Assembly: GCA_000091205.1 (NCBI GenBank)
Contig: AP006485.2
Length of the DNA stretch: 64,000 nt
Origin: Cyanidioschyzon merolae
Lineage: Eukaryota
Direction: 5' to 3' (one strand)
Positions 31,018-63,020 of the stretch are shown here, piece after piece. Within the stretch, counting starts at the first letter, position 1. Each line of letters starts with the position of its first letter. Below the pieces are notes generated by a model. The model searched no databases. It was not told the DNA's origin and saw only the letters and a list, made by a program, of their open reading frames with translations. The position numbers were made by a program, and so were the translations under genes.

Positions 31018-31145
31018 TCGATTTTTTTTTCATTGACAAAACGTTTCCATTGGCCAGCGTTCTCCGATTATGCGCATTTTCCTTTTCTTACTTTTTTGTG
31101 TTATTTTTTCAGTGCACTGTGAAGTATCTATCAAACACCCTACCT
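31018..31145 (-). repeat. Diverged, inverted dispersed copy of the 135-bp repeat unit
   Basis: The reverse complement of 31028-31125 ('cttcacagtgcactgaaaaaataacacaaaaaagtaagaaaaggaaaatgcgcataatcggagaacgctggccaatggaaacgttttgtcaatga') aligns with the tandem unit core 'cgcgcactgaaaaaaaaagtaagaagagaaaaagcgcacaatcggataacgctggacaaagtaaacgtttattcagtga'. Confidence 0.75.
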
Positions 31146-31331
31146 CCATGTTCCATTACCTATACTTCGTCTCGGATATTCTGGACGTTTCATACGTCCT
31201 ATCGTGCGTGGGATCGATGCTGTGCATCCGCGGCTCGCCCGCGAATGAAGCGCGATCACGACGCGCGCATCTCATGTCCGTTTTGATCAAACGGCTATAT
31301 ATATCAGATTTGACGAATTTTCGGTGGCATT

Positions 31332-31424
31332 GCGGACGTGTCCGAGTGGTTAAGGAGAACGATTAGAAAGCGCCTAGATATCGTTTGGGCTCTGCCCGCA
31401 CAGGTTCGAATCCTGTCGTCCGCG
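31332..31424 (+). tRNA. tRNA-Ser (anticodon AGA) with an ~11-nt intron 3' of position 37
   Basis: GCGGACG/CGTCCGC acceptor stem with discriminator G. D-loop 'GAGTGGTTAAGG', anticodon stem AACGA/TCGTT, loop T-T-AGA-A then the extra 'AGCGCCTAGAT'. Long variable arm GGGC-TCT-GCCC. T-arm 'ACAGGTTCGAATCCTGT'. TATATATA lies ~35 bp upstream. Confidence 0.8.
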
Positions 31425-33599: not shown

Positions 33600-33760
33600 A
33601 AGAGGTTTAATTCATGTAACTTGGACGAAGAGGGTTTGATGGATACCTCACCGTGCACTGGAAAAGAAAAGAAAAGAAAGAGCGCATCATCTGAGAACGC
33701 TGGCCTAAGTAAACGTTTTGTCAATGAACGTGAAAAATCGCTTGGGGCACCGCCCTGCAC
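33600..33760 (+). repeat. Diverged dispersed copy of the 135-bp repeat unit, overlapping the predicted 5' end of the downstream ORF
   Basis: 'ggtttgatggatacctcaccgtgcactggaaaagaaaagaaaagaaagagcgcatcatctgagaacgctggcctaagtaaacgttttgtcaatgaacgtgaaaaatcg' aligns with the tandem unit at ~70-75% identity. Confidence 0.75.
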
Positions 33761-36113: not shown

Positions 36114-39100
36114 TCAACAGAACCCGGATTCGGTACATACGACATTGCACGCCCGAAGTAACGCGAGCACTTGGGACAGTTGCTTTTCTGCGGGGAGTTT
36201 TCCTGTGCCGCGCAGTAGGATTTGCGTTCCCTGGATACTCGATCGACAGGAGATATGTTCGATGTTCAGAGCTGAGAGCGCTCGCGACCTTGTACTCATC
36301 TGCCTCAGCTCGTCCAGAATCTGCTTCCAGATGTGGACTGGTGCTGGACTCTGTAGGACGGTGTCCGATCCTTCGGAGCTAATCCGCAAAACGCCCAGCT
36401 GCCGCGCATACAACCTTGTCTTCATCATTAATACAAGGTGTTGAAGAGGTTTGGGCATGGGCCGTCCGCGCAAAACGTCGGCAAATTCTTCATCAAGCTC
36501 AGATTCACTGCCCACGGAAGTGAGGTCACGGTAGACCTGGGCCCTCTGTTGCGAGTCCGGAATGAGATAACGCGGTATAGCTGGTGAGAGTCCCTGCAGC
36601 GCAAATTCGCAGACACACATGTACTCTCGAAGGGATGGCGATGGCGCCGACGAGTCGGCGAACGTCCTCTCCCTCTTCTGTTTGTACTGCAGATGCTTGA
36701 TCGCTTCTCGTAACATTTTCGTGAAGAGCTCTGGCCCCAGATTCCATTGTGTTCCAGACTGGCTTGCTCCGAGCAAGTCGCCTGCTCCGCGAATCTCCAG
36801 GTCTCTTTGGGCGATCCGCAGTCCGACAGAACGCGGGTTGCGCTTTTGTGCGGATCGCTCTTGCGTAAGTTCCCGCAAAGCCTGCAACCGCATCTGTGCG
36901 TCCTGGTTGTCCTCGATCACCCTCGAATCAAATAAGTAGAGGCAGTATGCCTGGAGATTAGCGCAGCGACCTACACGTCCTCGCAGCTGGTACAGCTGGG
37001 CGAGGCCGAACTTGTGCGCGCTCTCCACGATCATCGTTCCAGCCGATGGAATGTCGATGCCGTTCTCGACAATCGTTGTCGACAAAAGTATTCTACCACG
37101 ACCAGAAGCGAACGAAACCATGACATCTTCCAAGCGACTCGTTCGACTGTGCCCGACCAGGATCGGGTAGTGTACCACCTCCAGTTTCTTGGACGCGAGC
37201 GATGCCTTGATGCGCTCGTAGGCGGCTGGAATGTCCGCGATGCGCGGCACGACGTAAAAGACTTGACCTCCTCGTCTCAATTCATGAGCGATTGCCTTGG
37301 CTACTAGCAATTCGCTCTCCGGACCTTGCGCAAGAATGAACGTGCGGACTGGTAAGCGAGACGCCGGTGCTCGATGAATCATGCTAACATCCCGGATGCC
37401 GGAAAGCGCCATGTAGAGTGTCCGCGGAATGGGTGTTGCACTCAGAGTCAGCACATCAACGGCAATATCGTCGGCATAAAACGACCTCGTTTGATCGAGA
37501 ATTTTGATCTTTTCCTTGTGCGTTACGCCGAATCGCTGCTCTTCATCGATGACGAGCAGCAGGCCATCGCGAGCAATCCGCGGAGCATTGCCCGATGCAG
37601 GGGTCAGTGTTGGTGACCCACTCCGACTCCGAGCGGCCGCAGCTGCAGTTGCGTCTGCCGCTGTCTGCGCATCGTTCACATGCCGTCGGCGCAAATGGAA
37701 GCGCACGCGCTCATTGAGCAGGGCATGCGTCCCCACCAGAATATCTATCTTGCCTGAAGCAACGTCTTCAAGCACTTGGCGTGCCTCCCTTGTGGAGACA
37801 TCGCGATACAGGGCCCCAATACGCACGTATTCGGGCATACGTCGCCGCAGCGTCCGCAGGTGCTGGGCGGCGAGCGTTGTGGTTGGTGCCAAGACTGCTA
37901 CCTGCCGGTTGTTCAAGATTGCTAAAAATATCGCACGCATCGCGACCTCGGTCTTGCCCACACCCACATCTCCACAAATCAAGCGGTCCATCGGCAGATC
38001 CCTCTCACAAAGATCGGAGAAAACGTCAGCAACGCACCTTTGCTGATCCTCTGTGAGACCGCCCGCCCTGTTGTACTCGAAAGCGCTATCAAAATCTACG
38101 TATAACGGATCTTTCGGATCAAATCGATAACGCGGACGCTTCACCGACTTTCGAAGCGCCTCAATTTGCAGGATATCTATTGCTGCCTTTTGGACGGCCT
38201 TGAAGGCACGGTTCCGTCGCTGCTCCCAGTTACGCGTCCGGCTGATGGCGTCTAGCCGAGGTTTGCCGCCAAGCGCTCGTTTTTTCACTCTCGAGGCTTT
38301 GCCTGAGCCTGGCTTTCGACCCCGCACCGACCTTGATGTCTCTACCTCTTCGTATGGCAGTTCACTATCTTCATCAGTGTCCTCGTCGACGTCCAAAACA
38401 CCGGACTGAAGCCGAGACAACAGTTCTACTTGGTCCACGGGTACGCGAAGGATCCCGTCGGCGTACTGCAACACAATGAACTCCTGCAACTCCGTGGCGT
38501 TTCCTGTGCTGTTATTGAGAATTCGTCTTCGTAAGAACTCCAAACCGAGATACTTCCCCACGCCGTACGTGTTGTGCACAACGTAGTCATTCGGAAATAT
38601 GTCTCCGAGCGGGACTGCTCGAAGCTTTCCTTCCTCAGGGTCGCTTTCCTCTGGTTGACTCGGATGAATCGAGGGTACCACCAACGCCGACTGAACGCTC
38701 AAGCGCTTCCATAGTGCCGGCGAGCCTGTCCGTGAAAACGCTCCCCGACACAGGCGATGCACAAAGCCTCTTCGTATTGAGACGTGCCTCGTATGCCAAG
38801 CACCTACCACCGTTGCTTTGGGGCATGATACCTGCTTTCGCGAAGCTAAAGCACAGTAGAGCCACATTTCATAGCCTCCTCCGCTCGGCCACTCAATAGC
38901 CTGGAAAGGAGAAGCAGCTTGCGTTCCTTTCCAAGGCGCTCCAGTAGCACGCGTTCGAGGTCGAGTACCGGAGCGCTGCGATCGCCCAGCGCCGACGTCG
39001 GTACCAGGGCACCGCCACCGCTGGTGATCTGCGTACTGGGCATTGCGCACGAGTTGCAGCACAATGTGTATCTCTCCCTGAGTGTATGTGTGTGTGTGTT

Positions 39101-39122
39101 TGAGTTTGAGTATCGACTGCAA
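36114..39122 (-). CDS. mfd: Bacterial-type transcription-repair coupling factor Mfd (TRCF) homologue lacking the UvrB-homology N-terminal module, with R/S-rich N-terminal extension (likely organelle-targeted)
   Basis: 1002-aa ORF. RNAP-interaction (CarD/TRCF) motif 'NDYVVHNTYGVGKYLGLE'. Walker A 'CGDVGVGKTEVAMRAIFLA...VAVLAPTTTLAAQH'. Helicase C-terminal 'TTIVENGIDIPSAGTMIVESAHKFGLAQLYQLRGRVGRC'. C-terminal D7-like region. Confidence 0.85.
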   Translation of the reverse strand: MQSILKLKHTHTYTQGEIHIVLQLVRNAQYADHQRWRCPGTDVGAGRSQRSGTRPRTRATGAPWKGTQAASPFQAIEWPSGGGYEMWLYCALASRKQVSCPKATVVGAWHTRHVSIRRGFVHRLCRGAFSRTGSPALWKRLSVQSALVVPSIHPSQPEESDPEEGKLRAVPLGDIFPNDYVVHNTYGVGKYLGLEFLRRRILNNSTGNATELQEFIVLQYADGILRVPVDQVELLSRLQSGVLDVDEDTDEDSELPYEEVETSRSVRGRKPGSGKASRVKKRALGGKPRLDAISRTRNWEQRRNRAFKAVQKAAIDILQIEALRKSVKRPRYRFDPKDPLYVDFDSAFEYNRAGGLTEDQQRCVADVFSDLCERDLPMDRLICGDVGVGKTEVAMRAIFLAILNNRQVAVLAPTTTLAAQHLRTLRRRMPEYVRIGALYRDVSTREARQVLEDVASGKIDILVGTHALLNERVRFHLRRRHVNDAQTAADATAAAAARSRSGSPTLTPASGNAPRIARDGLLLVIDEEQRFGVTHKEKIKILDQTRSFYADDIAVDVLTLSATPIPRTLYMALSGIRDVSMIHRAPASRLPVRTFILAQGPESELLVAKAIAHELRRGGQVFYVVPRIADIPAAYERIKASLASKKLEVVHYPILVGHSRTSRLEDVMVSFASGRGRILLSTTIVENGIDIPSAGTMIVESAHKFGLAQLYQLRGRVGRCANLQAYCLYLFDSRVIEDNQDAQMRLQALRELTQERSAQKRNPRSVGLRIAQRDLEIRGAGDLLGASQSGTQWNLGPELFTKMLREAIKHLQYKQKRERTFADSSAPSPSLREYMCVCEFALQGLSPAIPRYLIPDSQQRAQVYRDLTSVGSESELDEEFADVLRGRPMPKPLQHLVLMMKTRLYARQLGVLRISSEGSDTVLQSPAPVHIWKQILDELRQMSTRSRALSALNIEHISCRSSIQGTQILLRGTGKLPAEKQLSQVLALLRACNVVCTESGFC

Positions 39123-39275
39123 AGCACGCGCTGCGACGCTACCCTACACCCGTGTCAGGTGAAAGGAGCATACTAAAGTGCTCGGTGTTCCTGGATATCG
39201 ATTTTGTCTGAAAGCTTTTTGGTTTGTGGAATATGTATTCTACCATTGTAACAGGAAGGGCATGAGGTTTCATAT

Positions 39276-40484
39276 GTAATTAAGGGATTCTCGGCCGTCT
39301 TTTCTGACATGCTTGTTCGACGCTCTGCCGTCGAAACGCAGGGAGGCTCGGGAGCCAAGACGATTTGCAACGAAATCGAGCTAGGGCTGGTAAAACAAGC
39401 GTTAGCACGATTTAATGCATACATACAAGCCTTTTGCATGTGCGTACCCTTCCGTGCAGCACGCTCGATTCACGCATGCTTCCAGTTTTCGACCGCTCTG
39501 TTTCAGGGCTGCTCGTGCGCGCACCAATACCTACTGCGTATGCGGCTCGGCGAAGTGCTCAACGCCATCTCTTGACGGGCTGTTCGCAAACTCGTGCCGA
39601 ACACTCACCGGACCTGTCATCTTCAGATGATCATCGATTTCGTTCGATAGACAAACTCGCACCTCGTACCCGCCATCGACGAGGCGTCATTCCGCAGCAG
39701 CTGCATATCCCGCACGGAATATGCTCACAGAAGCGCTCCCGTCTCTTCGGGTGCATCGAAGGGCGTCACGGAGTCGGACGTTGGTCGTCGCTGCGATGGA
39801 TTTCATAGGAGAGCGCGTACACGCTTTTCAGTGGGAAGGCGTCGGGCGGTCGAAGTCCTGCGACTTGTCCTCCAGCCAGGGGACTCGCTCCGGTGTATTT
39901 TGCATCGCGGATAGCATTGCATTCCAGAAACCCTCGATCGATTGGAACGTCGTTCGCCTGCGTGTCCAGCGCGCAGAGTACTCGCTGAGCGGACAGCGCA
40001 GAAGACGCCCCTAGTCGCAGGGTACGCCAACAGGCGCTGAAACGTGTGATGGCATGCGAGGGAAGCTTTCCTCGCCCGTCGAGTGCATATACCTATGCGA
40101 TGAAGCGTACCCTCCGGAGCCTCAGGGCGGTTCTCCGCGGAGGAGGTTTGGTCGACATATAGGACAACGCAACCAGGCACCAGTCGCATATCTGGAAGAA
40201 GGTGCGTCGACGCAGTGTACAACGAACGTGAGAGTGGAAAGCGATGCGTAGGACACAACCAGCGCCTGCACATGAAATGCGTCGCTCTTTGCTGCAATCG
40301 GTGAACTCGTGGCTTGAATGGTGCCAGCACCACCGTTGGACGGCTTCCAAGAGAGCTGGAGGAAAAACATGAACCATTGTATGTAAAGCCGAAGATAAGA
40401 GAGAGAGAGACAGAGTAGGGAAGCAGTCGCAGAGGAAGCCAGCAAAGGCTGGTGTCGTTGACAATTGGAAGAGACCCAAACTTT
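39276..40484 (+). repeat. 1,209-bp direct repeat, copy 1 (~99.5% identical to 48089-49297)
   Basis: Base-for-base alignment with copy 2 at a constant offset of 8,813 bp; only a handful of mismatches. Boundaries are defined by abrupt loss of identity ('catat|gtaatt...aaacttt|agaacg'). The ORFs on it (39309-39575, 39434-39808, 39803-40591) are duplicated verbatim and have no recognisable domains. Confidence 0.9.
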
Positions 40485-41766
40485 AGAACGTGCGCCCCAG
40501 TCAGGTATGCGGATCCGTTCCGTTCTATTCCCCCGTGGGTGTAGCAGGGAGGCCGTAGGAGTTCTGGTTGTTTAAAAATATTTTGATGCAAGCCGTGTGT
40601 CGCCGAGAGTTTATCCGTACTTGTTCCGTCATATGCATGCGTACCGCGGCATAGATTTCATGCGGACGTCCACAGTGCTTGCAAGTTCATGCTTCCTACT
40701 CTGGGTGTGAAACGAACCACACAACGGTACCACGGATGGCAAACGTTCTCGGAATCACCCACCCACTGAGCGGGCATCGGGTTTCAGGACGCGAGTCCAC
40801 GATTCCACACCGACTTGCGGCTCAGTCGAAGGGGCGCAACAAATACCTCGGAGGTTTTTACGGATGCATAGGATCCCCAGACTGATACAGCGACTCCATG
40901 GTACGGCCGTCTCACGTCACAAAATTGTGGAGCGGAAAACAGTCTATTGAAAGCATCAGCTTCGAAACTTGAGTTGCTGTATCCATCTGATGGCTGAAGC
41001 TATCTTGGTAATCCTTCAGCAAGCACGACAACTCTGCGATATCTCCTATGCGCTCATAGCGTTAAACAAGGCGTTGTGCATTCGAGCGGTGTTAGGTCCC
41101 CTGTCAAGGAGCCCTGTGCAGAGTACCGCGGACGCACCACACAAAGGATACTGGCAAGCCGCAGAGGACGCTACGAGCGGGCAGCGTTTAAGGCGCGAGT
41201 CGCCCGCTCACGGACGCTCGAGGCACACTTCCCGAACCGGATACGGCTGCTAGCGAAGTATCGCTCCGTCGAAGTACTATGTCGTACTGCTGCACGCTCG
41301 TTCAGTTTCTCCTTTACCAGTCTTTGGTGCCTCGGAAATCGGATCGCCTGCCTAGCGTGCCGTTTATTGTCTGATCGGGTGGCGGTCGTCGACGACTACG
41401 CCCTACTGGAAACTACGGTTGCGGCATCTGTTGTTGTGGTTGTCGACGTAGTCGTCGTCGCTCACGCTGCTCATTACCGTGGATTACTGCAGTGCACTCT
41501 GCTGCATTGCACTGCAGATCGAGCCGCTGCTGCGCGACGTAGTGCATACCAGGAGGCACGAGGCCGTCGGCGTGCGCACGAACACGAGGCTGTGCACAGC
41601 ATAACTGTTTACGTAGGGCGTTGGTGCCAGGAGCGTTGTCTCGTCCAGGTGGTGAGCGGCTGTTCGCGACACTAGGTCGAACTGGTGAAGGTCTTCTTCA
41701 TGGGCGCATACCTGGTCTCGAACCGCCCCTCTCAAGCGTGACCTTATCGCGCCTGCGACATAAGTC

Positions 41767-43506
41767 ATGAAAACCGAAGTTGTTGCTTCATGGCCGCTGT
41801 ATCTGATCAACACAAATATCGACGAATTTCTCGAAGAAGGCAGCGACACTTCACAAAACCTTGTCGAGCCTTTTCAGATCGGTAGACAGCTGCGTCACAT
41901 AGAAAGCCTGGAACCTAATGAGAGCTACACAGAAGACCTACTTCTAGAATTCGACTTTTTGCAAGGTGGCAACGCAACCGTTGCGAGTCAACTTTTTCCG
42001 TTGAAAGCGAAAGACTCAAGCATCGCAGGTGTGCGCTGGAAGGTTTCGCAGCAAGAGCTAGAAATATGGCACCGTCCACGAACTGCGCACTACGCCCACC
42101 CTGCACTAGACTCGCTTCGATACCCCGCCGCACCAGCACAGTTGACAGCTCAAGCGGAGCGCCCACTTGCAACCTCTCCACTGGCAGGTGATGCAGCAAA
42201 ACGCGTGCACCGACCGGAAGGCGATCACAGCACTAGCAGGCACCAACCCAGTCCGCTGTCTGATGCAGCAGCGAGTTCCAGCGCCCCACGAATCCACTAT
42301 TTAGCGGCCAAGCGTGAGCGTGGCGAGTACAACACCGTTCTGCTGCGAAGAGTTGTCATACCGGGCCAAGGAACTGCTTTTGTTTTGGTGCCCGTGCACG
42401 CTGTCTTGCATATGCTTCCTTCCGGTCTGGTTGATCCCTCGACATCTGGGAGCTTGCAGGGAGGTGAGCCCCTAAGTGATCACCGCGATGTACCGGTCGA
42501 AGTAGATATCGTCTTCCGAAGGAGCGAGCAGAGCAAGACGACCAACGCTAGCGACCTTCTGACGTCACAGCGACGTTTACTCGCAGGCGCAGATCCGTGG
42601 GTGCTCGTGCGTTACGAATCGACAGCAAATGAAGTGAATATTGAAGGAATAAGGCCCGAGCAACTGGATGCTCTCTCTAATGCACCACAAGCGCGTTTCC
42701 TACAGCGGGCTGAGCTCCGAGATCGCTTTGCACCAACAGCAGCGCAGCGCTGTTTCGTGTCGGAGAAATACCAGATTGATTCCGAGACTCTCGGACGGGG
42801 CATTGTGCTGGCAATGGATCGATGGACTGGTGGTCTTGAGCATCTGGGCCCGTCATCACCTCAACTTCGAAAAGCGGATCGATTGCACGCCATCAGCGAT
42901 TACATAGTGAAGCTGCTCCGTCACGCTCAAGTTGTACCGTTTGAACGCCTGTATTCAGTTGTGAATGCGCGCTTCCCTTGCGAAGAGACTGAGCTTGTCG
43001 ACATTTTAGCAGATCAGACGTTTCTTGTCCGTGGCGCTCTCGTGCTAGATAGCGAAATTTTCTTCAATGCTCCCGCAGAAGGATCCCAGTCTTTTCGGCA
43101 ATTGTCTGCGACCAGTGAGCGCGACGAGCTGGTGATGGTGAGAAATCTCGTGCTCGCTCTCTTTGATGAAGCACAGCCCGATGGCACCGTAACTTTGATG
43201 GAGCTTGCCATGCTCAGAGGTCGTACTACGCCAAAACGACTAGCTCGGATTATGAACGGCCTCGCTCGGACAGGTGCCCGTGGTGCGTTCCAATTCCTAG
43301 TCAAGAGATGCAACGACTTGGGCGAAAAATTTCCCGACACAGCCAGCAGGCTATCCGCGCGACTTCGAGGAGCTGCAGAGTTGGCTCGAGCGCGAATCTT
43401 TCTCGGTAATAACTGCAGTAGGACCCATATCCGGACCCAGGCAAAAGCTACCATGACCGCTGGCGATAGAGAGAGGCGCCCGGGTGCAAAGCGACGCCGC
43501 ACTTGA
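41767..43506 (+). CDS. Hypothetical protein (579 aa), possibly with multiple winged-helix-like domains
   Basis: Long ORF with eukaryote-like codon usage and no diagnostic motif recognised. Lies between the two 1.2-kb direct repeats. Confidence 0.3.
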   Translation: MKTEVVASWPLYLINTNIDEFLEEGSDTSQNLVEPFQIGRQLRHIESLEPNESYTEDLLLEFDFLQGGNATVASQLFPLKAKDSSIAGVRWKVSQQELEIWHRPRTAHYAHPALDSLRYPAAPAQLTAQAERPLATSPLAGDAAKRVHRPEGDHSTSRHQPSPLSDAAASSSAPRIHYLAAKRERGEYNTVLLRRVVIPGQGTAFVLVPVHAVLHMLPSGLVDPSTSGSLQGGEPLSDHRDVPVEVDIVFRRSEQSKTTNASDLLTSQRRLLAGADPWVLVRYESTANEVNIEGIRPEQLDALSNAPQARFLQRAELRDRFAPTAAQRCFVSEKYQIDSETLGRGIVLAMDRWTGGLEHLGPSSPQLRKADRLHAISDYIVKLLRHAQVVPFERLYSVVNARFPCEETELVDILADQTFLVRGALVLDSEIFFNAPAEGSQSFRQLSATSERDELVMVRNLVLALFDEAQPDGTVTLMELAMLRGRTTPKRLARIMNGLARTGARGAFQFLVKRCNDLGEKFPDTASRLSARLRGAAELARARIFLGNNCSRTHIRTQAKATMTAGDRERRPGAKRRRT

Positions 43507-44552
43507 GGATATCTTCACGTCAATATTTTCTCAGATGGATCAAACTGAACCTGGGCGGGCTCTTGGGAGGAAAGTTTCACAAGGATCCCCCACGAACGAT
43601 GTTTCGATTTCTTTTCTTGACGGATTCTGTTTCGCGGGGGGCTTGACGACGCTGATTTCGATACCGCAAAGCCCCGGGTCGCGAAAAGGACGCGCGAACG
43701 TCACACGCGTCGCACCGCCCCTGTTTTGTGACCGCAGTTGGACAGAGCGCCGGGAGTTGAAAGAAAAAGCCTTGTGTTCACATTGTGTGCATATCGGCGG
43801 CCGCGGGCAGGTTTCAATGCTTCGAAAGGCTGTTCACATTCCCTGCGCGCTTCTTTGAAGTTCACTGCGCCCTTTCGAAACGGACTCAGTTTGGCGATGA
43901 ACATACAGGAGACATCGCGAGAAACACTGGTTTTGATACGCACTCGGAGGTACAGGATTTCTTTTGCCGATGCGGCCCGTATTAGCAGCCTTTCGAAGCT
44001 GCCCGCATGGATATTCGTACATATCCATTCGCTTGCTGCAAAAAGTGAAGCAGAATCGTACATAGCTTTAGGTTAAAAACCGTCACGCTTCCCGGGAGTG
44101 ATAAGATGTATTTGGTGTCATTTCCATGAACCTACCGCATCACCACCTTGTCTAGAAGCATACGTGGTCACATTATGGAAGCAATTCTCACTGCTCCAGT
44201 GAAACCGTTTCTCCTCGGTGAGCGCATCAATGAGGTTACCCCGTTGATCACGAACTGGACAACATCTCGTCCAAATTCGGGGATGAACCCTGCGATGTAC
44301 GGTGCACTCCGTCGACTTGTGCATAAGTGCAACCAGGGGCGGCATCGCATATTCTCCGTCACCACAGTTTCAGAAAAATGTCTCGGGAATGCATATTCCA
44401 AGTCCAGCGCTTCAGCTGGTTCAATCTGCACCAACATGATGAGATACCCCAGCGCGCACATTGCACATCAAAGTCGCAAAACAAGCCACCGTGTCCAGGC
44501 AAAATGGACAGCCATAGAGGCCCAGCATCGTCCAGAGCTCTGCCTCTGTTTC

Positions 44553-45746
44553 TTACTTCCACATCTTTTCAATAGAGAGATTTTTCTCTGAGTCCTGGCG
44601 CATTACTTTTGCGACTGCCATCTCGAAATCCTCCTGAGTAACATGCGTTCGGCGCTCGCGCAGCGCAAACATCCCTGCCTCTGTGCAGACCGCCTTCAGA
44701 TCTGCACCGCTAGCCCCGTTCATTTTCGCAGCGATCGCTCGAAGGTCGATGCTCCGCACTAGGTTCATTCGTCTAGAGTGGATACGCAGAATGTCCAAAC
44801 GTGCGTCTTCATTTGGATGGGGGAATTCTATTTTCCGATCAATCCGGCCAGGCCGCAAAAGCGCCTCGTCCAAAATGTCGATCCGGTTTGTTGCCATCAA
44901 CACTTTGATGTTTGTCGTTGGCTCAAAGCCATCCAGCTGGTTCAGTAGCTCCAACATCGTGCGTTGTACTTCAGAGTCACCGCCGCCACGACTGTTGTCG
45001 ATGCGTGCGGAGCCGATGGAATCGACTTCGTCCATGAAAATGATGCTAGGAGCGTGTTCACGTGCCAACGCGAACACAGATCGAATGAGCTTGCTGCCCT
45101 CGCCGATGTATTTTTGCACCAGCTCACCACCAGACACACGGATGAAGGTACAGTCGGTATGGTGCGCAACCGCTCGAGCTAACAAAGTCTTTCCTGTGCC
45201 AGGCGGTCCGTACAGCAGGACGCCCTTGGGCTGCGCAATCCCCAACGCATCGAATAGCTCTGGATGCTTGATTGGCAGCTCGATCACTTCTTTAATCTGT
45301 TTGATCTGCTCATCGAGCCCTCCAATCATGTCATAAGTGGAGTCTGGAACTTTCTCCACCTTCATCAGAGAGACCAGAGGATCAAACTTTGACGGCAAGA
45401 CGAGGTGCAGAGCGTACGAGTCGTTTCGAAGCGCAACGCGAGCACCGGGCTTCACACTCGACGCAGCCACCTGCTTCTCCACATCAACGATATACTTTCC
45501 TTCGGGATGGACTTTCACAAGCGCTTTGTTCTTACCGACTGGCTTGACAACTTCACCCACGTAGGAGCCGGGCTCTTGAAGTAGTTGGAGTTCTTCACGC
45601 AAACCGCGAACTCTCCCATTGAGTTCATTTCTTTGCGCCTCCAAACGCCGCACTGTTTCCGCCTTTTCTTGGATTAAAGACTCAAACTCGTCGATTTTTG
45701 TCTGATAATACAAACGTAGACCAGAAGATCCAGCCGAAGTAGCCAT
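44553..45746 (-). CDS. RPT6: 26S proteasome regulatory subunit Rpt6 (PSMC5-type AAA ATPase); ORF is open to 45908 but the conserved start is '[15 protein letters not shown]' at 45746
   Basis: Coiled-coil N-terminus and OB domain. Walker A '[16 protein letters not shown]', Walker B '[11 protein letters not shown]', and a C-terminus '...SIEKMWK' matching the Rpt6 '...KKLWK' tail. Confidence 0.9.
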
Positions 45747-45854
45747 TTCGCAGGGCCGCTTGCCACAACTCCTGCACGCCCCCAGCTGAAACCGTGGCTG
45801 GAAACCGAAATCCGAATTGCCTCGTGCGCATAACACCGCAGTGCGACCTACACA

Positions 45855-47714
45855 GTGCAGGTGGTACTTGCGCGAGCAGAGGAACGCGTTTCGAAAGCGC
45901 GTGTTCATCTCTGTATGGACGCGTCGATTATTGTCTTATCTGACTCAGAGCCGGCTTCGGATGTGCCTGAATGGGTCTCTGGCGATGATGTAGCTTCTAC
46001 AATTGGCGCAGACAACGAGTCGGTCGGGTTTCGCCGCGAGCGACCCTCACCGGTGTGCCACGAGGCGCAAGTTGCGCGGTGCTCCGCAGCGCTTCGCGGC
46101 GAGTCCTCGGCAGACCAGGAGCATTTGAGGGAAGATCATCCTCGGTGGTTGACAGAATTGTCGAAACGCCTTGAACTCTACTTGAACCTGGACTTTCAGC
46201 GACGCGTCGAAGAAGACGAGCTGCCTTCCAGCGACCTCGAAGGTGAGTTTTCGGCTCTTTCGCTCGATGTGCGCCCGGAAAAAAGTCAAACGGACCAACT
46301 CGCTTTGGAACTAGCTCAGTCACGTACACAATCTGCCAGTAAGACGCAAAAGACGTATGAGTGGGAAACCGATCGCTACGAGATCAACACCGCGTTGCGA
46401 GATCGAAGCTTTTCGTCGCCCACACGCTTGGAGCATTCGCAATACACTGATACCTCTGTTGCCTTTCAACTGGGAATGTGTGAGCATGCCTCACAAGAAT
46501 CAGTTGCGAAGCGAAAGTATGCACGAGAACATTATGCGAAAGGTTGCGTACAAGAGTGCCTCGCTGGTGTCCGCAAAATTGGTACCAGGACGCCTGTTTC
46601 CGACACCAGCCTTTCCACGATGTGTCGGTCGGGGAGCATCGTCATGCCGCATACGGCAATCAGATGGAAAACTTCACACATGACCATGATCATCCGCTGC
46701 ACCGAGCCGACCCAGAAGCTTTATAAGGAACTCGTGCCTCCGACCGGATCGCGCCTCTTCATGGAACCGCTGCCAGTCGAGATGGATTCCAGCGTGGTTG
46801 CAGTAATTCAATGGCAAGCGAATGCTCTGAAAAGTGCTTCATCTTCCGCGCATGGGAGCACAAAACACGCGATCGTGGAAACCTTGCTTCCTTTCGTGGT
46901 GATCTGCGTAGAAGGCACTGGGTTCTTGGCGCGTGGCGCTGATCGAACGCACGTACGGACCCTGGTGAAGGCCGTTACGCACATGTGCGTCGAGGGCACC
47001 AAAACAGAGATACTCATCAGATATACGAATCCGAGTGAGAGTCTCGCCCGAAGTGTACAACCCCCGAGGAGAGGACGGCATGCACACCGTCAGGGGACGA
47101 GCGCCGCTCCCAGTCGGGGTTGCGGCATGACACGCCAGTTGGTCGAGATGCAGTTTGTGAAACTTTCAACCTATTTCGTTGAAGAGTGCGGCATTGATCT
47201 TACCTGTGTGACAAGCATCGACCATGAACTCGAGTATATCTCGGCGCTCTCGGAGGCGCTTTTAGAGTTGCCCCTTGAGCTGGAGCCTCAACCCAATGGT
47301 GCCTTCCGGATCCAGTACGCTCCTGAAGATCTGGACTTGCAAGCGGCCGCACGCTCTGACTCGTTGCGGCGTAAGAAGAGTGTCCTCAGGGAGAGACAGC
47401 CCTCTGAAACGGAACTGGAATGCATGCCGAACATTGACAAGCGCATATTACTGCAGCTCTTCTTGTCTTCGATTCCATTCGTCTCTGAGGACACTGCAAA
47501 CGCCATTTCAACAGCGTATCCTTCGCTGGGTGCGCTCTACAGGGCCTATGAATCGTGTCCCGATGACCAAACCAGGCGGGCGTTGCTTGCGAAGATTCCT
47601 GTCCAGAGGAGCATCGGCGCCGGGCGAGTGCGACGGATTGGCCCGGCACTTTCAGGTCGAATTTTCGAACTTATTTGGCGCAAAAGGGGGGAATCGTTGG
47701 TTTCTCTTCGTTGA
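45855..47714 (+). CDS. EME1/Mms4-like protein (non-catalytic partner of the MUS81 structure-specific endonuclease)
   Basis: The C-terminal (HhH)2 region '[48 protein letters not shown]' closely parallels the EME1 C-terminus ('...RRIGPELSRRIY...'). Upstream is an ERCC4-like segment '[14 protein letters not shown]' without an obvious catalytic motif. Confidence 0.5.
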
Positions 47715-48088
47715 CAAGTATTTGCTCGGCTCGCAAAGCACGTATTCTTGTCTGATCTAGCCTATCACGCAGCATTGCCCGAGCTCACAGAACGATTCAG
47801 TCTTGGGCGTCGGCACAAAGCATCGCCTCGAGAGCATGCGTTGGAACGCCACGTCGCTTGCGTACTCGACGAAAAGATGAAGTCGCTTGTCCTTCGCCCC
47901 ATCAGCAATGCCATGCCACAAATGGACACGTCATTTCCACAGGCAGAGCGCGTTACCTGCCACAAAGACGCAATTCTTGATCCTGCTATACATGCATTGA
48001 ACTCCACAGTACTCGGGTATTTCGAGAATAAAGTAGTTGGAAGGAGACATGTGGGCGACATGCATTGCAGCACATTTCGTATTCTTAC

Positions 48089-49297
48089 GTAATTTAGGGA
48101 TTCTCGGCCGTCTTTTCTGACATGCTTGTTCGACGCTCTGCCGTCGAAACGCAGGGAGGCTCGGGAGCCAAGACGATTTGCAACGAAATCGAGCTAGGGC
48201 TGGTAAAACAAGCGTTAGCACGATTCAATGCATACATACAAGCCTTTTGCATGTGCGTACCCTTCCGTGCAGCACGCTCGATTCACGCATGCTTCCAGTT
48301 TTCGACCGCTCTGTTTCAGGGCTGCTCGTGCGCGCACCAATACCTACTGCGTATGCGGCTCGGCGAAGTGCTCAACGCCATCTCTTGACGGGCTGTTCGC
48401 AAACTCGTGCCGAACACTCACCGGACCTGTCATCTTCAGATGATCATCGATTTCGTTCGATAGACAAACTCGCACCTCGTACCCGCCATCGACGAGGCGT
48501 CATTCCGCAGCAGCTGCATATCCCGCACGGAATATGCTCACAGAAGCGCTCCCGTCTCTTCGGGTGCATCGAAGGGCGTCACGGAGTCGGACGTTGGTCG
48601 TCGCTGCGATGGATTTCATAGGAGAGCGCGTACACGCTTTTCAGTGGGAAGGCGTCGGGCGGTCGAAGTCCTGCGACTTGTCCTCCAGCCAGGGGACTCG
48701 CTCCGGTGTATTTTGCATCGCGGATAGCATTGCATTCCAGAAACCCTCGATCGATTGGAACGTCGTTCGCCTGCGTGTCCAGCGCGCAGAGTACTCGCTG
48801 AGCGGACAGCGCAGAAGACGCCCCTAGTCGCAGGGTACGCCAACAGGCGCTGAAACGTGTGAGGGCATGCGAGGGATGCTTTCCTCGCCCGTCGAGTGCA
48901 TATACCTATGCGATGAAGCGTACCCTCCGGAGCCTCAGGGCGGTTCTCCGCGGAGGAGGTTTGGTCGACATATAGGACAACGCAACCAGGGACCAGTCGC
49001 ATATCTGGAAGAAGGTGCGTCGACGCAGTGTACAACGAACGTGAGAGTGGAAAGCGATGCGTAGGACACAACCAGCGCCTGCACATGAAATGCGTCGCTC
49101 TTTGCTGCAATCGGTGAACTCGTGGCTTGAATGGTGCCAGCACCACCGTTGGACGGCTTCCAAGAGAGCTGGAGGAAAAACATGAACCATTGTATGTAAA
49201 GCCGAAGATAAGAGAGAGAGAGACAGAGTAGGGAAGCAGTCGCAGAGGAAGCCAGCAAAGGCTGGTGTCGTTGACAATTGGAAGAGACCCAAACTTT
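48089..49297 (+). repeat. 1,209-bp direct repeat, copy 2
   Basis: See copy 1. Identical except for a few substitutions (e.g. 'gattcaatgc' vs 'gatttaatgc'; 'gtgagggcatgcgagggatgc' vs 'gtgatggcatgcgagggaagc'). Confidence 0.9.
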
Positions 49298-49427
49298 TTG
49301 TCTATCCAACCGAGTTCGTTAAGTTGACCTACTCCAGAATATTCTAATACGCTCGTATGACTGACGAGCACTCTGACCCTCTGGTGCTACTCTTGGTCTT
49401 CAGCGCCGCGCCCGTTGTCACCTTCTC

Positions 49428-50231
49428 GTGTGGAGAAAGTGTCTATTTGCAGTAATGGAAGGCCCAGCCGCGGAGTCAGCAACTGCTCGTGAAAAGCTTT
49501 CTTTCGAAAGGAGGCTCTCCCTGAGCAGGGAGGCGAAGGAACGTGGGAACGCGCTCGTCCACGAAAAGAGTTACAACGAAGCAAAGCGTGCCTACGACGA
49601 AGCGTTCGTATACATGTTCTACTCCCAAGAAGAATACGAGTACGAGTTGACTCAAACAGAAAAGGAAATTTACCAAGACTTTCTGCTAACGCTGCACCTA
49701 AACCGTGGGTTGTGCAAGCTGAAGTTGCGAGACTTCGACGGCGCCAAGTGGGACTTCGACGAGGCCCAGCGCTATGCGAAAGCGCGCTGCGTCCACGGCG
49801 GTGTGGGTCACCCGAAAGCGCTTTATCGCAGAGCCCTCACCCTAATGGAGATGGTACGAGTGGAGCTTGAAAAGGCCGCACGACGCGAGTACTGGGATGA
49901 TGATCGGACACTGCAATGGTGCAGCGCAAGCGAGACAGACCTAAGGGACGCCCTCAGCCTAGCGCCTGCTGATAGAGCCATACCATTGGCACTCCAAGAA
50001 CTCAGCAACCTACGCATGCAGATCGTAGAACTTCAGAAAGCTCAACGCGCGCGATCCAAGGCACTCTTCGCGAAACTTGGAAGCCGAACGATGAAACCAG
50101 ACAGCAATGCGCGAAAGAGCCATACATGTCCGTCGACGGATTCAGGAACGAACGCTTCCACTCAACCAGTGACAAACGAGGAATGCATACAAGCTTCTCT
50201 TCCAGCATTAGAACGCGTACGTATCTACTAA
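49428..50231 (+). CDS. TPR-repeat protein
   Basis: 'ERGNALVHEKSYNEAKRAYDEAF', 'NRGLCKLKLRDFDGAKWDFDEAQRY' and 'ALYRRALTLMEM' form three TPR-like helix pairs. Coiled-coil C-terminus. Confidence 0.45.
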   Translation: MWRKCLFAVMEGPAAESATAREKLSFERRLSLSREAKERGNALVHEKSYNEAKRAYDEAFVYMFYSQEEYEYELTQTEKEIYQDFLLTLHLNRGLCKLKLRDFDGAKWDFDEAQRYAKARCVHGGVGHPKALYRRALTLMEMVRVELEKAARREYWDDDRTLQWCSASETDLRDALSLAPADRAIPLALQELSNLRMQIVELQKAQRARSKALFAKLGSRTMKPDSNARKSHTCPSTDSGTNASTQPVTNEECIQASLPALERVRIY

Positions 50232-50731: not shown

Positions 50732-52204
50732 TCAACGCGCCTTGGCTGAACGCTGCGGAGGGCTCTCCAATATCTTCATCCGGGTGGCATCCACGGGCGC
50801 GTTGGCGTCGCTAGACCTGAGATAGGAGCGTATAGCAGCAGTTTTGGCGTCGGGCATGGCATCCCTATTGGTGTGCGCGCCGGCTGTCGCGGCTGCGGAC
50901 CTCGCTCCAAGTGGCGGACATCCGAGCCATCTACGAACTCTCTGGTGTCGAAGCGCAAACGCCTGGAGCATGGAGAAGAGGTTGTTCGGTAACCAGTAGC
51001 AAAAAAGAATGGCAGGAAACTGTGCAGTCAGCGGTAGTAGGATCAGAGCGAAGATTCGCATCAAATTCAGCGCAAAAGGAGGCAGCTGGGCTCCGCCAGT
51101 CTCCGTGCCCATTTGAATCATGAATAGCATGGTGGCACTGGTCAGCGCCGGCAGTCCATAGAAGGGATCCGGCAGGGAGAGGTCTCGGAACCATCCCAGA
51201 CCGCCATTCCGTAGCTCATCTGGGTAGATCTTAGCTATTTTCCGAAGTCCCAGAAAGAATGAGATAAAAAGCGGCATCTGCACCAGAGGATTCACCAGGC
51301 TACGTAGAGGAGATATCTGGTTCTCCCGCAAGAGCCTAAAGACTTGTTGTTGAAGGGCACGGATTCGCTGCTGGTCACCACTGTGCATGGCAGCCTGCAT
51401 CCGCTCTTTGATTGCATCAACATCTGGTTTGATACTCTGCATTCGAGCAGCGTTTCGGAACGTATTCAGCGTTAGAGGTAGCACGAGTATGCGAGCGAGG
51501 ACGGTCACGGCAGCTACTGTGGCCCACCAGGGAAGATCGGTGTACTCCTGGAACATTATGATGCCTTGAACGACTGGATCGTACCAGTTCCTTTCAGCTG
51601 AGAGTGCGGCTTCCGCTGCTTCAGATGCAAGGTCCGTCGACGCAGCATTTGAAGAGGCCCGGAGATCATCAGCAATTTTCGCTGTGGCCTCCGAGTCGAC
51701 AGTGGTTGTACCAGGCCCAGTCGACTTCGGACTTTCCGCACCGAGCACTGCGGTGGCGCTTTCGGCGCGTCCAACTGCCCTCGATGACTCACTTTGGAGC
51801 CTTCGAACCTGCAGTTTTCCGAGATCTATGCAGTCCAGTCTGCGAAAAGGGTCTCGCTGTACCAACGTAGCACCGGGAGTGCTAGCTCGCGTAACAGGCA
51901 GTGCGTGTGCTGCTCGTGCGTGTATACCTCGAGCGAGGAAACGAGAGGCATTTTTGAGGCCTTGCTCACCAGAGAGGAGCCGACCCACCCCGAACAAACA
52001 CTGACGAAGCATCTCTACCTGAGAAGGGCCATGAGCAAAGACGGTATGCTGTCGCACGCGACACAAGACTGCTTGAACGAGCCTGCTGCGTACCTTGTCA
52101 CCGATGCCTTGCGGGTGGACGCGCCTTGCCTCGTGCGATCGATGATGCCGTGTGGCGGGCGTGCCGACGTTGTCCCAGTGCCGATGCTCGAACGTATCTA
52201 GCAA
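50732..52204 (-). CDS. Oxa1/Alb3/YidC-family membrane protein insertase (start uncertain; N-terminal ~200 aa may be presequence or over-extension)
   Basis: 'LPWWATVAAVTVLARILVLPLTLNTFRNAARMQSIKPDVDAIKERM...NPLVQMPLFISFFLGLR...GGLGWFRDLSLPDPFYGLPALTSATMLFMIQ' matches the conserved TM1-TM2-TM3 core of Oxa1/Alb3. Confidence 0.7.
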   Translation of the reverse strand: MLDTFEHRHWDNVGTPATRHHRSHEARRVHPQGIGDKVRSRLVQAVLCRVRQHTVFAHGPSQVEMLRQCLFGVGRLLSGEQGLKNASRFLARGIHARAAHALPVTRASTPGATLVQRDPFRRLDCIDLGKLQVRRLQSESSRAVGRAESATAVLGAESPKSTGPGTTTVDSEATAKIADDLRASSNAASTDLASEAAEAALSAERNWYDPVVQGIIMFQEYTDLPWWATVAAVTVLARILVLPLTLNTFRNAARMQSIKPDVDAIKERMQAAMHSGDQQRIRALQQQVFRLLRENQISPLRSLVNPLVQMPLFISFFLGLRKIAKIYPDELRNGGLGWFRDLSLPDPFYGLPALTSATMLFMIQMGTETGGAQLPPFALNLMRIFALILLPLTAQFPAILFCYWLPNNLFSMLQAFALRHQRVRRWLGCPPLGARSAAATAGAHTNRDAMPDAKTAAIRSYLRSSDANAPVDATRMKILESPPQRSAKAR

Positions 52205-55200
52205 GTTTTATTTCTGATCATGTACCTGGAGGGTGAGCAAATCATCGTTTCCCATTACTTCGAAGGTCAATACGGCTGCCGTTTTTATATTATCTGTAGC
52301 TGATTCAGCGCAACGAGCCGGGAAACGTTTGAGATGCTCTGTTACAACACCGCATCCGGTTCGTATTTGCTGGGAACACAGTAATATAGAATCGTGGAAC
52401 AACGATACCGTTCATCAATCGCAAAGAAGCATCATTTTCATTGTGTGTATACGTGTGTATGGTTATCCAGCGTTTCTGGATCGCTGACGGTACCATTCAA
52501 TTGTCATTTTTGATCAGCGTTTTTATGCTGCGTCCTCTTGCTTTGGACTTGCGGCGACCGCCATCATGCCTTTCAGCTCGGACCGATGAACACCTTGGAT
52601 TCCTTCTCTTCATCCGCCTTGAACGGTTCGAAATGTTTGTCGCTGCTCAACTGAGGCATACGTTTCATGAAATACATGTAGACTGATATACCATCGTGCT
52701 CACTTGTCCGTTTAGTCATCACTTCAGTTCCGCCGCGCGCACGAGAATCCTTGAACCAGTGCCGCCAATGTTCACAGCGAAGTTGTACGCATACTGCATA
52801 CCTGATCGCCGAGACCAGCAGTTGTTCAAAGAGCACGTGATGATATACAGTACGCAAGTGTCTACAGTGACATGTCGAAATGTACCATGGGAATTTGGAC
52901 AGGTGGCAGCCCTGCGCCCGGCACTCCTACAAACAGTTGCTCGACGAATTGCTTCAAGTCGAGGAAAGCTACGCGAAACATCCCAAAGCGAAAGGCTACG
53001 CGATCCCGAATGACGTTCAGCATCTCACGGTACGGAAGTTTCTCCCTGCCAGTGTGTTTCAGTGCCCAAACGACGATAACATTTTGAGATGGAATTTTTT
53101 GCCAGAACAGTTTCTCGTTCGCCGCCCTTCTTGTCCTCTGTTCCGGCGGATTTGAACCTTCTTTGTCTTGTGGATTCTTCTCCTTCTCTGCTACTTGGTG
53201 CAGTACCATGTCTACGTTCACTGGACTCTGCGTGTGCTTTCTTCCGCGGCAGTGAGAAGGCTCTGGTGGACGGTGGTGCTCAAATACGCATTCTCGATGT
53301 ATACATCTATTCTGCCTTACGTATCTTCTCGTCATATTCTCCGTGGTGAGCATGCCCACAGGCCGAGGCGAGCATTCCTTCACCTGTCCGGGCAAGAGCA
53401 CACAAGCTACAAAGCAGTTCAGGGCTGGTGAATGTAGAACAAGATTTGTGGAAAATGACACGCTGGAGAACGGTGTCATGGATGTGAACGGATCCACGAT
53501 CGATACGTGAGCGTAAAAATAGTTTTGACGACATAGAATACTCCTTCTACTGGACTGCACAGCGGAGATTACAGTGGAATGAAAAGCAGGCCAACGTCAG
53601 AGTCAGCCCCGCAATACTTGACCGTCTTTGAGTGCTGGAAAGCGACTTTGCCGTTGGGCATGATAGAAGAATGTGCGACAGTGAAGCCACTCAGTAGCTC
53701 TACGATGGATGAGGCTTTGAACGATTCGGTCTTTTGGGCGATTTGTGGTCGACTAGAGGATCGAATCGCAGCCAGGGCTGATGTTTTCGGAGTTCTCGTG
53801 CGTGCCTCCTGTGCGATTCGTATTGTCGGCTCTTCGAATGCCCGTGTACAAGTCCACCATATCTCCCGAACAATGTGTCATCAAGTGAGACGAACACAAG
53901 TCCGTCCAGCTATAAGCGTTCGCGTTTCCGCATAAGACCAATCAAGTACTCTTGGACGCACCACTGTCCAGTACAGAACCGTTTTTACTGCGTTATCCAT
54001 CGGTGTCTGTTCAGTACTGTTCTTATTAACCGAACGCAAATATGGCATCCTGTGGCCACCTCGGTAGTCTTCCGTAGAGTACGCCTGCAATGAAAGGTAT
54101 TGACGATGAGAAAGTCTTACAACAAGAGTCCAATTAGTTCTGCTTTGTGCGTATGTAGCATAGGATAAGGTCTTCGAGAACTTGAGCTCATTCACCATCT
54201 AACGGTAGGATGACTGATTTGAGTACGGAAATCCGTTTTTCGCGAAGTATGACTGACGTCTTAAAGTGCTTCTACGATATTTCTTTAATCTTTGGGACGC
54301 ATCTTTTTTTACTGGTTACAAGCGAGAGAAAAAACAAAAGCATAAAGAGCGTGCTCGTTAAGATGTTCTAAAATGCGCTGCTATGACTATCAAGTCCTGC
54401 GGTTTCTCAGCGTCTGTGTGGGAAACACACAAATTGAAAAAAAAGTGCAGTGCTAGTTGTGCAGGAGCATGCCCGGACTTGAGTATGGGTAATGCTTTTG
54501 TCGAGAAAGACAGATACGCTATTTGCCTGTTGTACGCAAGCCACATCCGGTACTGTAGGCGACAAGAAATGTAGAAACACATTTGGAGTTCGTTTGAACT
54601 TCATTGCACAACTCCAACCGACTTCTTCCTAACAAGCTGAATGGTTTTATCACCGGCATGGTGGATCAGCCTCGACTGAGCGACTCGCAAACGGATTTGG
54701 TACAGATTCGTTCACTGGAGAAACTGTCTCTTCGCTAGACGCATTATGTTCACGTTGCTGCATTTATGTATGCAATTTCACGTCCATACCCATAGCAGGG
54801 TTACTTGAGGAAGAGTCTGTTACCCAGATGGCTGGCTGCCGCCCACATGAACCCAGGGTAAGGCTCTCGATGTTGTAGGGTCGATGCAGAACTCCCCGCA
54901 TTCCTCGAGAGACACGACTGTGGCCGACAAGGAACGAATCCGCAGAAGTTGTCGCAAGCGCATGCGTTTTGCTGTTGCGTTGCTGTCCAAAGTATGCGTC
55001 CCGCCCTGTCCGCAGGGCGCTTGGACGCAGAGGGCCGCGTGCAGCTGCCTTGCCCATTGAAAGGTCCTGTCGGAAGCAGAAAAACTACTAAAATTTAGCG
55101 CGCTTCAATCCTGTCAGCTTCAGAAAAAAAAGCGACCGCAACCTGCATCGCAAGAGGTCGCCGCCAGGAGAACCGGCGAGCCTCATATCCCCCGTACTTC

Positions 55201-62640: not shown

Positions 62641-63020
62641 TCGTTTCTTTCCGTGTTCCTCAACCACTTGCGTACCGTCGTACGACTGACCAGAATGCAT
62701 AATGTAGTTCTCGTTGCTCTTTTAGTAAAGAATATATCCTACAGGCGATGCGTCAGCGATCTATACAGTAAATTGCATTGTGATGTCGATCTCCTGCTAT
62801 ATACCACAGCAGGGATGGAACAAATCTGAGTAGAGAGTCTGTAAGCGAGCCTGTTGGCATACGAACACTATGTCGGATGCGCGAGGTATTCGCTTCCCTC
62901 AATGGTGAAACGGTTTTCGGTGCAAAGGCGTGTGTGCGCTGTAGCTCTTGCAACGGATGCGTCTATTGATTGCATGTGTGTTTACGTCACTGTCGTCGTA
63001 ACTGATTCATTGAACGCTGC

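Follow-up and report, generated by a model that had tools for sequence, protein, structure and literature searches.

Why are two 1.2-kb direct repeats, which bracket a 7.6-kb block of ordinary cellular genes including one for a proteasomal ATPase, nearly identical to each other? The repeats lie in a stretch of 64,000 nucleotides from Cyanidioschyzon merolae (contig AP006485.2 of assembly GCA_000091205.1), which we call the window. All positions are numbered within this window, and R1 and R2 are the left and right copies of the repeat. An earlier reading of the sequence (the original prediction) was right that the repeats exist and that they are not a long terminal repeat (LTR) retrotransposon, but recurrent gene conversion was not on its list of possible origins. 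We argue that R1 and R2 belong to an old, dispersed family of repeats, and that recurrent gene conversion between these two pre-existing direct copies is probably the best explanation of their near-identity.

A BLAST comparison of the window with itself pairs 39269-40484 with 48082-49297: the 1216-bp alignment is ungapped, contains 7 mismatches (99.42% identity), and has an offset of 8813. This confirms the prediction of two 1.2-kb direct repeats of about 99.5% identity at a constant offset of 8,813, with a start at 39269 that is 7 bp to the left of the predicted 39276. Chance cannot yield such a match.

39269-40484, + strand: R1 identity block, the 99.4% core in common with R2 (self-BLAST, mismatch list)
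48082-49297, + strand: R2 identity block (self-BLAST), crossed in context by metagenome contigs L001, L007, and L027
40398-40409 (R1) and 49211-49222 (R2), no strand: (AG)6 microsatellite in the repeat, read from the sequence

The mismatches are at 39272, 39275, 39282, 39413, 40050, 40064, and 40178, so three of the seven fall in the first 14 nt. The block is abrupt at both edges, and by eye the outer 100 nt have nothing visibly alike. Tandem Repeats Finder reported no array over 39000-49500. The repeat begins with TTCATATG and ends with CAAACTTT; neither TG...CA termini nor a target-site duplication can be seen, and the flanks (GCATGAGGT / AGAACGTG and CATTTCGTA / TTGTCTAT) have no duplication in common. 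Sequence inspection thus agrees with what had been said about the termini, and the (AG)n tract that had been noticed near the 3' end of the repeat is an (AG)6 in each copy. The pair is also young beside everything else that is repeated in the window, as had been proposed with respect to the Fanzor-like copies.

The unit is not a private pair, as it had seemed to be. It is a member of a family of about 1.4 kb that has three further copies in the window, found with nhmmer, and others on metagenome contigs (L-numbers). These contigs are from the same organism (about 99-99.7% DNA identity) and from many samples, and we used them as independent assemblies. With R1 and its flanks as the query, nhmmer matched 9746-11170 (+), 31752-33022 (+), and 18299-19433 (-), with E values from 3e-70 to 1e-39. 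We refined the extents of the copies by running nhmmer with single copies and with a profile that was built without R1 and R2.

39118-40547, + strand: R1 as a whole family member, extending about 150 nt to the left and 63 nt to the right of the identity block (nhmmer)
48075-49359, + strand: R2 as a family member; its left part is missing up to the identity edge or a point beside it, and about 62 nt of diverged sequence of its own remain at the right end
9745-11194, + strand: family copy C3 (nhmmer E 3e-70 against R1; 54% identity)
31622-33027, + strand: family copy C4 (nhmmer E 8e-64 against R1; 52% identity)
18277-19484, - strand: family copy C5, with an internal deletion (nhmmer match in two pieces), adjoining a degenerate Fanzor-like copy
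2-902 of L011, - strand: family copy (nhmmer)
4801-6191 (full) and 10-206 (partial) of L040, both - strand: family copies at a further locus

Apart from the pair R1/R2 itself, all pairs of family members are just 52-59% identical, with Jukes-Cantor distances of 0.59-0.76 and a transition/transversion ratio of about 1. This star-like divergence suggests that the family may have spread in one old burst. The family makes up 10.6% of the window, or about one copy per 10 kb, and we estimate that it accounts for roughly 28% of the intergenic DNA, in a streamlined genome. A profile of the family had no match in about 47 kb from two related species. We did not find the family described in a limited check of the literature, and we do not assign it to a class.

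The key observation is that the 99.4% block and the element have different boundaries, with the block nested within older homology. A profile from the old copies, without R1 and R2, aligns to 39143-40541 of R1 and to 48078-49364 of R2. Ungapped, in-register comparisons just to the right of the block give 30/51 matches for R2 with C3, 27/46 for R2 with C5, and 35/51 for R1 with C3, but only 23/51 for R1 with R2. The right 51-mer of R2 has 78/153 matches to C3, C4, and R1 combined, as compared to a null of 38.7±7.4 and a maximum of 74 in 176,788 random 51-mers. In other words, 0/176,788 51-mers from the window reach the score of R2 (Monte Carlo p < 6e-6). To the left of the block, R1 matches C3 at 45/100 positions, in register. 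The left flank of R2 matches all of the copies at 25-29/100, which is background, so R2 lacks the left part of the element, and its homology goes no farther than the identity edge. Older homology that continues in register past the tract, as expected for gene conversion, is therefore found on the right side of both copies and on the left side of R1 only. It thus appears that each site held its own family member with its own diverged right end, and that only the cores became alike.

Because the block is nested within family homology, we can exclude both a simple segmental duplication and the recent insertion of a complete element at each site. Insertion of a non-autonomous element, as originally suggested, does hold for the distant past, but it does not account for the near-identity, as the edges of the block are not the ends of the element. 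The suggestion of a recent local duplication fails if a simple tandem is meant: nothing past the 1216 bp aligns by blastn, the flanks are either unrelated or alike only at the level of the family, and they do not align as repeat-unit-repeat-unit.

Are both copies really there, and do they vary together? Contig L009 crosses R1 with both flanks, and L001, L007, and L027 do the same for R2. Two more contigs (L031 and L032) contain the entire 7.6-kb block and, on either side of it, 127-138 nt of the repeat. Other contigs (L002-L004, L006, L022, and L025) stop 37-321 nt inside the repeat, which is what is expected of short-read assemblers at a true two-copy repeat. A 22-mer from the left end of the repeat was found in 6 contigs of the metagenomes, all of which map to the R1 and R2 sites only, and was not found in a scan of viral contigs. 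So in the metagenome data that we scanned, the near-identical unit has two contexts, not many. As to the concern that the repeat might be an assembly artefact, both copies recur in context in independent assemblies, so it is not one.

To compare alleles, we used only those sites that are within one assembly k-mer of unique flanking sequence. Two sites, 40416 (T/C) and 40436 (A/C), which are 48-68 nt from unique flank, and the length of (AG)n are variable both in R1-flanked and in R2-flanked contigs. At 40416 and 40436, the R1-flanked alleles are T,A (the window and L009), T,C (L031), and C,A (L032), and the R2-flanked alleles are T,A (the window), T,C (L027), and C,C (L001 and L007). The (AG)n tract is longer by AG in L001, L028, and L032 and by AGAGAG in L007. 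In these short-read metagenome assemblies, then, the same polymorphisms are present in both copies. Over the first 150 nt, R2 differs from R1 at 7-8 sites in most samples and at 4 sites in the window, and the differences that are specific to each copy at the left edge recur across samples. Also, the R1 of L025 has the R2 alleles at 39279 and 39282, and in the R1 of L009 three of the sites at which R2 differs are read as ambiguity codes (N). Recurrent gene conversion is expected to leave shared polymorphism, tract ends that vary, and a divergence that rises toward the edge, and these alignments point to such a history. R1 and R2 also have a higher G+C content (0.548-0.549) than the unconverted copies C3, C4, and C5 (0.507-0.518), which is only suggestive of GC-biased conversion.

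The genes around and between the repeats constrain what recombination could do here. As identified with Pfam, their order is Mfd/TRCF, R1, RPC5, Rpt6-type, EME1/MUS81-family, R2, TPR, and Oxa1/Alb3.

36114-39122, - strand (36114-38867 as called elsewhere, 917 amino acids): Mfd/TRCF-type helicase, the left neighbour (Pfam CarD_TRCF_RID, DEAD, Helicase_C, TRCF); P0008 is 100% identical
41767-43506, + strand: RPC5, a subunit of RNA polymerase III (Pfam PF04801, 1.1e-11); the closest named relative is from Cyanidiococcus yangmingshanensis, at 39% identity
44553-45908, - strand (44553-45746 as called elsewhere, 397 amino acids): Rpt6-type proteasomal AAA ATPase (Pfam AAA, Prot_ATP_ID_OB_C, AAA_lid_3); the same protein, identical, is on the 23 metagenome contigs that were read
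45855-47714, + strand: EME1/MUS81-family gene (Pfam PF21292, 4.3e-16)
49428-50231, + strand (49455-50231 as called on L001, 258 amino acids): TPR protein, the right neighbour (weak Pfam TPR match), starting about 95 nt past the right end of the R2 family member
50732-52204, - strand: Oxa1/Alb3 (Pfam)

The first of the enclosed genes, which had been left as a hypothetical protein, is instead a homologue of RPC5. Its closeness to Cyanidiococcus yangmingshanensis, and that of PsbQ on a linked contig (see below), place the window in a cyanidiophycean red alga, a dweller of hot springs. RPC5, Rpt6, and EME1 are in the same order in Cyanidiococcus and in a second relative. The interior is thus made up of cellular genes whose order is conserved in relatives, and with no gag/pol, no TG...CA, and no target-site duplication, an LTR retrotransposon can be rejected, as the original prediction had done. 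The spacer between the EME1 and TPR genes is 686-695 nt in the two relatives and 1741 nt here, so we consider R2 to be extra DNA of this lineage, as expected for an insertion of the family.

How could two old repeats have become so alike? R1 and R2 are resident members of an old, dispersed, non-coding family, 8.8 kb apart and in direct orientation. In the scenario that we favor, their 1216-bp cores would have been made and kept near-identical by interlocus gene conversion (non-reciprocal homologous recombination between the two sites, or concerted evolution). When one copy suffers a break, it would be repaired from the other copy, without a crossover. The tract would stop on the left where the homology of the truncated R2 stops, and on the right it would stop inside the element, where R1 and R2 diverge too far to pair. 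A crossover would delete or duplicate RPC5, Rpt6, and EME1, and selection would remove such outcomes, so that only conversion would be seen. We infer this repair mechanism, and also how the pair might first have grown similar enough to recombine, from the sequences.

There is good reason to expect recombination in this group. Cyanidiophyceae have very efficient homologous recombination, intrachromosomal recombination between direct repeats has been seen as marker pop-out in both Cyanidiococcus and Cyanidioschyzon, and the diploid phase dominates natural mats of these algae (PMC13353863). Given this efficient recombination and the known pop-out, direct repeats of 1.2 kb are a credible substrate. 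Haploids should not survive the loss of RPC5, Rpt6, and EME1 by crossover, which in the diploid phase should be recessive. The earlier idea that the structure could loop out essential genes is therefore upheld, in the sense that the repeats are a potential substrate for it.

Several points weigh against gene conversion as the explanation. Homologous recombination requires long near-identical stretches, and outside of the block R1 and R2 are only about 45% identical, which is too low to start recombination. What remains of the similarity that was available for pairing before the event is the 45% of the unconverted parts and the 14-nt left edge, where 11/14 positions match; the latter hints at a higher similarity in the past. 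Proximity alone does not explain the pair, because C4, which is in direct orientation just 7.5 kb upstream of R1 (start to start) and so is closer to R1 than R2 is, was not homogenised with it. There must have been an initiating event, which could be an old local duplication with continuous conversion thereafter or a one-off templated replacement. A left edge that coincides with the end of R2's homology is also what a partial duplicative insertion would give. Transfer may have gone in either direction. Finally, the polymorphisms are from short-read assemblies of mixed populations, and strain mixing may contribute to them.

What kind of sequence is the repeat? As far as can be tested, the family is non-coding. 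In tblastx comparisons among the copies, all six frames score alike. Conservation across the family is flat at about 55% over 1.4 kb, with no conserved core and no 3-nt periodicity (the periodicity signal of the substitutions is 0.18 of the median). The open reading frames (ORFs) of the repeat have no match in Pfam, which is consistent with the earlier statement that they lack recognisable domains. A search of 1.84 billion representative proteins with phmmer, using the 262-amino-acid ORF of R1 as the query, had as its only matches the ORF of R2, two short variants, and two ORFs located on other copies of the repeat. We therefore do not consider the 262- and 251-amino-acid ORFs on the minus strand to be genes: they have no domain, no frame signal, no periodicity, and no outside homologues. 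Nor is there a sign of a structured RNA, as Rfam had nothing for 39000-40700 at E ≤ 1 or at the gathering thresholds, and a tRNA scan of the repeat had no match.

We also rejected several kinds of mobile element. The ends of the family are fuzzy, with no target-site duplication and no poly-A tail that we can recognise. A search for inverted repeats in four copies found no terminal pair that is common to the copies, although this test is weak at about 45% divergence. A DNA transposon with terminal inverted repeats, or something like a miniature inverted-repeat transposable element (MITE), was rejected for want of terminal inverted repeats or target-site duplications, with the same caveat about divergence. 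A Helitron-like element was rejected because a 3' hairpin is present in C3 only and is not kept in the other copies, and a composite transposon because the repeat has no coding signal and the would-be cargo is syntenic with relatives.

The window also contains Fanzor/TnpB-like copies at 19625-21028 (+) and 61432-62831 (-), which are frameshifted and lack a long ORF but keep a C-terminal motif of the D.NAA.NI type. There are fragments at 9383-9556 and 29193-29476, and what exists in extra copies is just the 3' end region. Fanzor-like copy A and C5 adjoin head to head, and a fragment that resembles the Fanzor 3' end lies 190 nt from C3. On the other hand, Fanzor-like copy B, R1, R2, and C4 have no such neighbour, so we do not link the two families.

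Within the bracketed block there is a second repeat, which complicates the left side of the locus.

41033-41685, no strand: 653-bp repeat within the bracketed block, ending 82 nt upstream of the RPC5 ATG

Its second copy is between PsbQ and a gene of the Ribosomal_S8e family (S8e below), and is 99.1% identical in L014 and L017 and 96.9% identical in L018. All four combinations of flanks occur: R1-flank/RPC5 (the window, L031, and L032), PsbQ/RPC5 (L011, L015, and L016), PsbQ/S8e (L014, L017, and L018), and R1-flank/S8e (L028). Two haplotypes of the 653-bp repeat, which differ at 20 scored sites, are present in every flank context. PsbQ-RPC5 is the gene order in Cyanidiococcus, and the PsbQ of the linked contig is 69% identical to that of Cyanidiococcus yangmingshanensis. 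Given these combinations and the order in Cyanidiococcus, the join in the window from Mfd through R1 and the 653-bp repeat to RPC5 is either a derived rearrangement or one of two structural haplotypes; it is less likely to be an assembly join. This question leaves the near-identity of R1 and R2 and their membership in the family untouched, but it does bear on how firmly they bracket the three genes in every strain.

In a related alga, whose Mfd is 59% identical, a 228-kb contig with Mfd (L036) ends in the spacer just upstream of Mfd (its first 985 nt), and contigs with RPC5 (L037-L039) end in the spacer just upstream of RPC5 (their first 103-296 nt). We found no overlap between the ends of L036-L039. 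These ends suggest that there is hard-to-assemble sequence upstream of Mfd and RPC5 in that alga too.

Two metagenome contigs have the junctions that a crossover between R1 and R2 would produce. L008 (2409 bp) is of the deletion type, with the repeat between the Mfd flank and the TPR flank, and L028 (9626 bp) is of the circle or tandem type, leading from EME1 across the repeat into the right flank of R1. These junctions could equally be wrong paths of the assembler through a two-copy repeat, and we do not take them as evidence of rearrangement. In L008 there is a 35-nt gap with a 12-nt overlap where the two sides meet, which makes an assembler chimera likelier than a real deletion junction.

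How do other explanations compare to recurrent gene conversion? The main rival, possible if rather unlikely, is that a 1.2-kb piece was recently copied and pasted from one site to the other, once and with no later exchange. An internally deleted element could have transposed, a break could have received a templated insertion, or replication could have switched templates, and any family fragment that was already at the target would only have guided the junction or coincided with it. The sharp edges and very low divergence would fit such an event, as would the structure of R2, in which the leftmost 130-150 nt of the family are missing exactly up to the identity edge and which is DNA that was added in this lineage (the EME1-TPR spacer is 1741 nt rather than 686-695 nt). 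It would also explain why C4 and R1 are near each other yet not homogenised, and it avoids the difficulty that flanks at 45% identity are too diverged for classical recombination. Yet a random insertion would not have put the right junction in register within family homology in both copies (p < 6e-6), and there are no terminal inverted repeats, target-site duplication, or poly-A to go with an insertion. The polymorphisms that both copies share and the R2 edge alleles in the R1 of L025 both need later exchange. And having 3/7 of the differences in the first 14 nt suits the edge of a heteroduplex better than it suits random mutation. An error of assembly or polishing (a collapsed or mis-joined repeat, mis-mapped reads, or a chimeric join of R1 and R2) seems scarcely credible. 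It is true that assembly from short reads is interrupted at the repeat edges in L002-L004, L006, L022, and L025, that the 653-bp repeat in the block is crossed in all four flank combinations, and that PsbQ, the 653-bp repeat, and RPC5 (L011, L015, and L016) are arranged as in Cyanidiococcus. But more than 10 independent assemblies from different samples have the same near-identical sequence at both sites, and their copy-specific differences at the left edge are reproducible. Also, L031 and L032 independently link the right flank of R1, the 653-bp repeat, RPC5 through EME1, and R2 as in the window, and the window itself passes through five family copies and two other repeats unbroken, which suggests a repeat-resolving assembly.

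We give just as little credence to the idea that R1 and R2 are a functional repeat (a regulatory module or an untranslated RNA gene) that is held identical by purifying selection rather than by recombination. In its favor, the family persists in a streamlined genome, where by our estimate it makes up about 28% of intergenic DNA. The TPR start codon is about 95 nt past the end of R2, and R1 has divergent genes on its two sides. However, selection cannot account for an identity that falls from 99.4% to 45% within one base, or for polymorphisms that the copies have in common. The flat conservation at about 55% with no core, the lack of an Rfam match at E ≤ 1, the lack of 3-nt periodicity, the six frames that score alike, and the lack of homologues beyond the family's own spurious ORFs also argue against it. 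More speculative ideas, which strike us as highly improbable, are that the family is a lineage-specific intergenic module (a promoter or insulator, or an untranslated RNA) with conversion as part of its upkeep, or that R1 and R2 reversibly excise or amplify an 8.8-kb circle of RPC5, Rpt6, and EME1 in natural diploids, with L028 and L008 as the junctions.

The phenomenon may not be limited to this pair. The segment 52514-53490 is 98.7% identical to DNA beside the S8e-family locus (L028 and L014). On the S8e side, the partner extends farther to the left and is an intact member of a different old family, of which 490-1811 (-) is a diverged copy. The copy at 52514-53490 is truncated exactly at the identity edge. 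The same phenomenon seems to have occurred here a second time. The stretch 52628-52749 is where many contigs end.

The window has other repeated segments as well. At 8367-9058 there is a tandem array of about 5 units of roughly 136 bp. Single units of this kind at 31010-31155 (-) and 33617-33759 (+) are inverted on either side of C4 and a tRNA gene, and they resemble long terminal inverted repeats around a 2.7-kb segment. The tRNA gene, at 31332-31424 (+; 93 nt), scores 48 bits with Rfam and was missed by ARAGORN. It probably has an intron or is otherwise unusual.

If we are right about gene conversion, then what had looked like a mystery element around a proteasome gene is the product of an ordinary, known process, and the LTR and recent-insertion readings can be set aside. 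The analysis also brings to light an abundant non-coding repeat family in cyanidiophyte genomics. Two further segments here, the 653-bp repeat at 41033-41685 and the segment at 52514-53490, have near-identical second copies, and such copies fit the very active homologous recombination that is used for gene targeting in this group. On the practical side, short-read assemblies of this alga break or switch paths at these repeats, so metagenome contigs can be chimeric there.

The locus resembles several known systems in part. Like an LTR retrotransposon, it has two long direct repeats that bracket several kb, but R1 and R2 belong to a family that is mostly found as single copies, and the interior is syntenic cellular genes. 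Like families of non-autonomous DNA transposons, the repeat family is abundant, non-coding, dispersed, and intergenic, with star-like divergence. Unlike them, it has no recognisable terminal inverted repeats or target-site duplications, we identified no autonomous partner here, and 1.4 kb is long for a MITE. The pop-out cassettes of Cyanidioschyzon and Cyanidiococcus (PMC13353863) are similar in that direct repeats flank a segment in an organism with active homologous recombination, with a deletion and a circle as the predicted products. They differ in that R1 and R2 are a natural locus whose enclosed genes are essential, and in that the junction contigs here (L008 and L028) are not reliable evidence.

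The closest parallel is with interlocus gene conversion. Ectopic gene conversion and concerted evolution of dispersed repeats have been described for yeast Ty elements and for duplicated genes. R1 and R2 are unusual in that partners in this family are only about 55% identical and that their unconverted parts are too diverged to recombine, so that some initiating event is needed to bring them into the convertible state. Also, C4, which is nearer and has the same orientation, takes no part. Nevertheless, they share with that process a block of near-identity that is nested within older homology and has sharp boundaries, no crossover product, polymorphisms in common between the copies, more divergence at the edges of the tract, and perhaps an enrichment in G+C.

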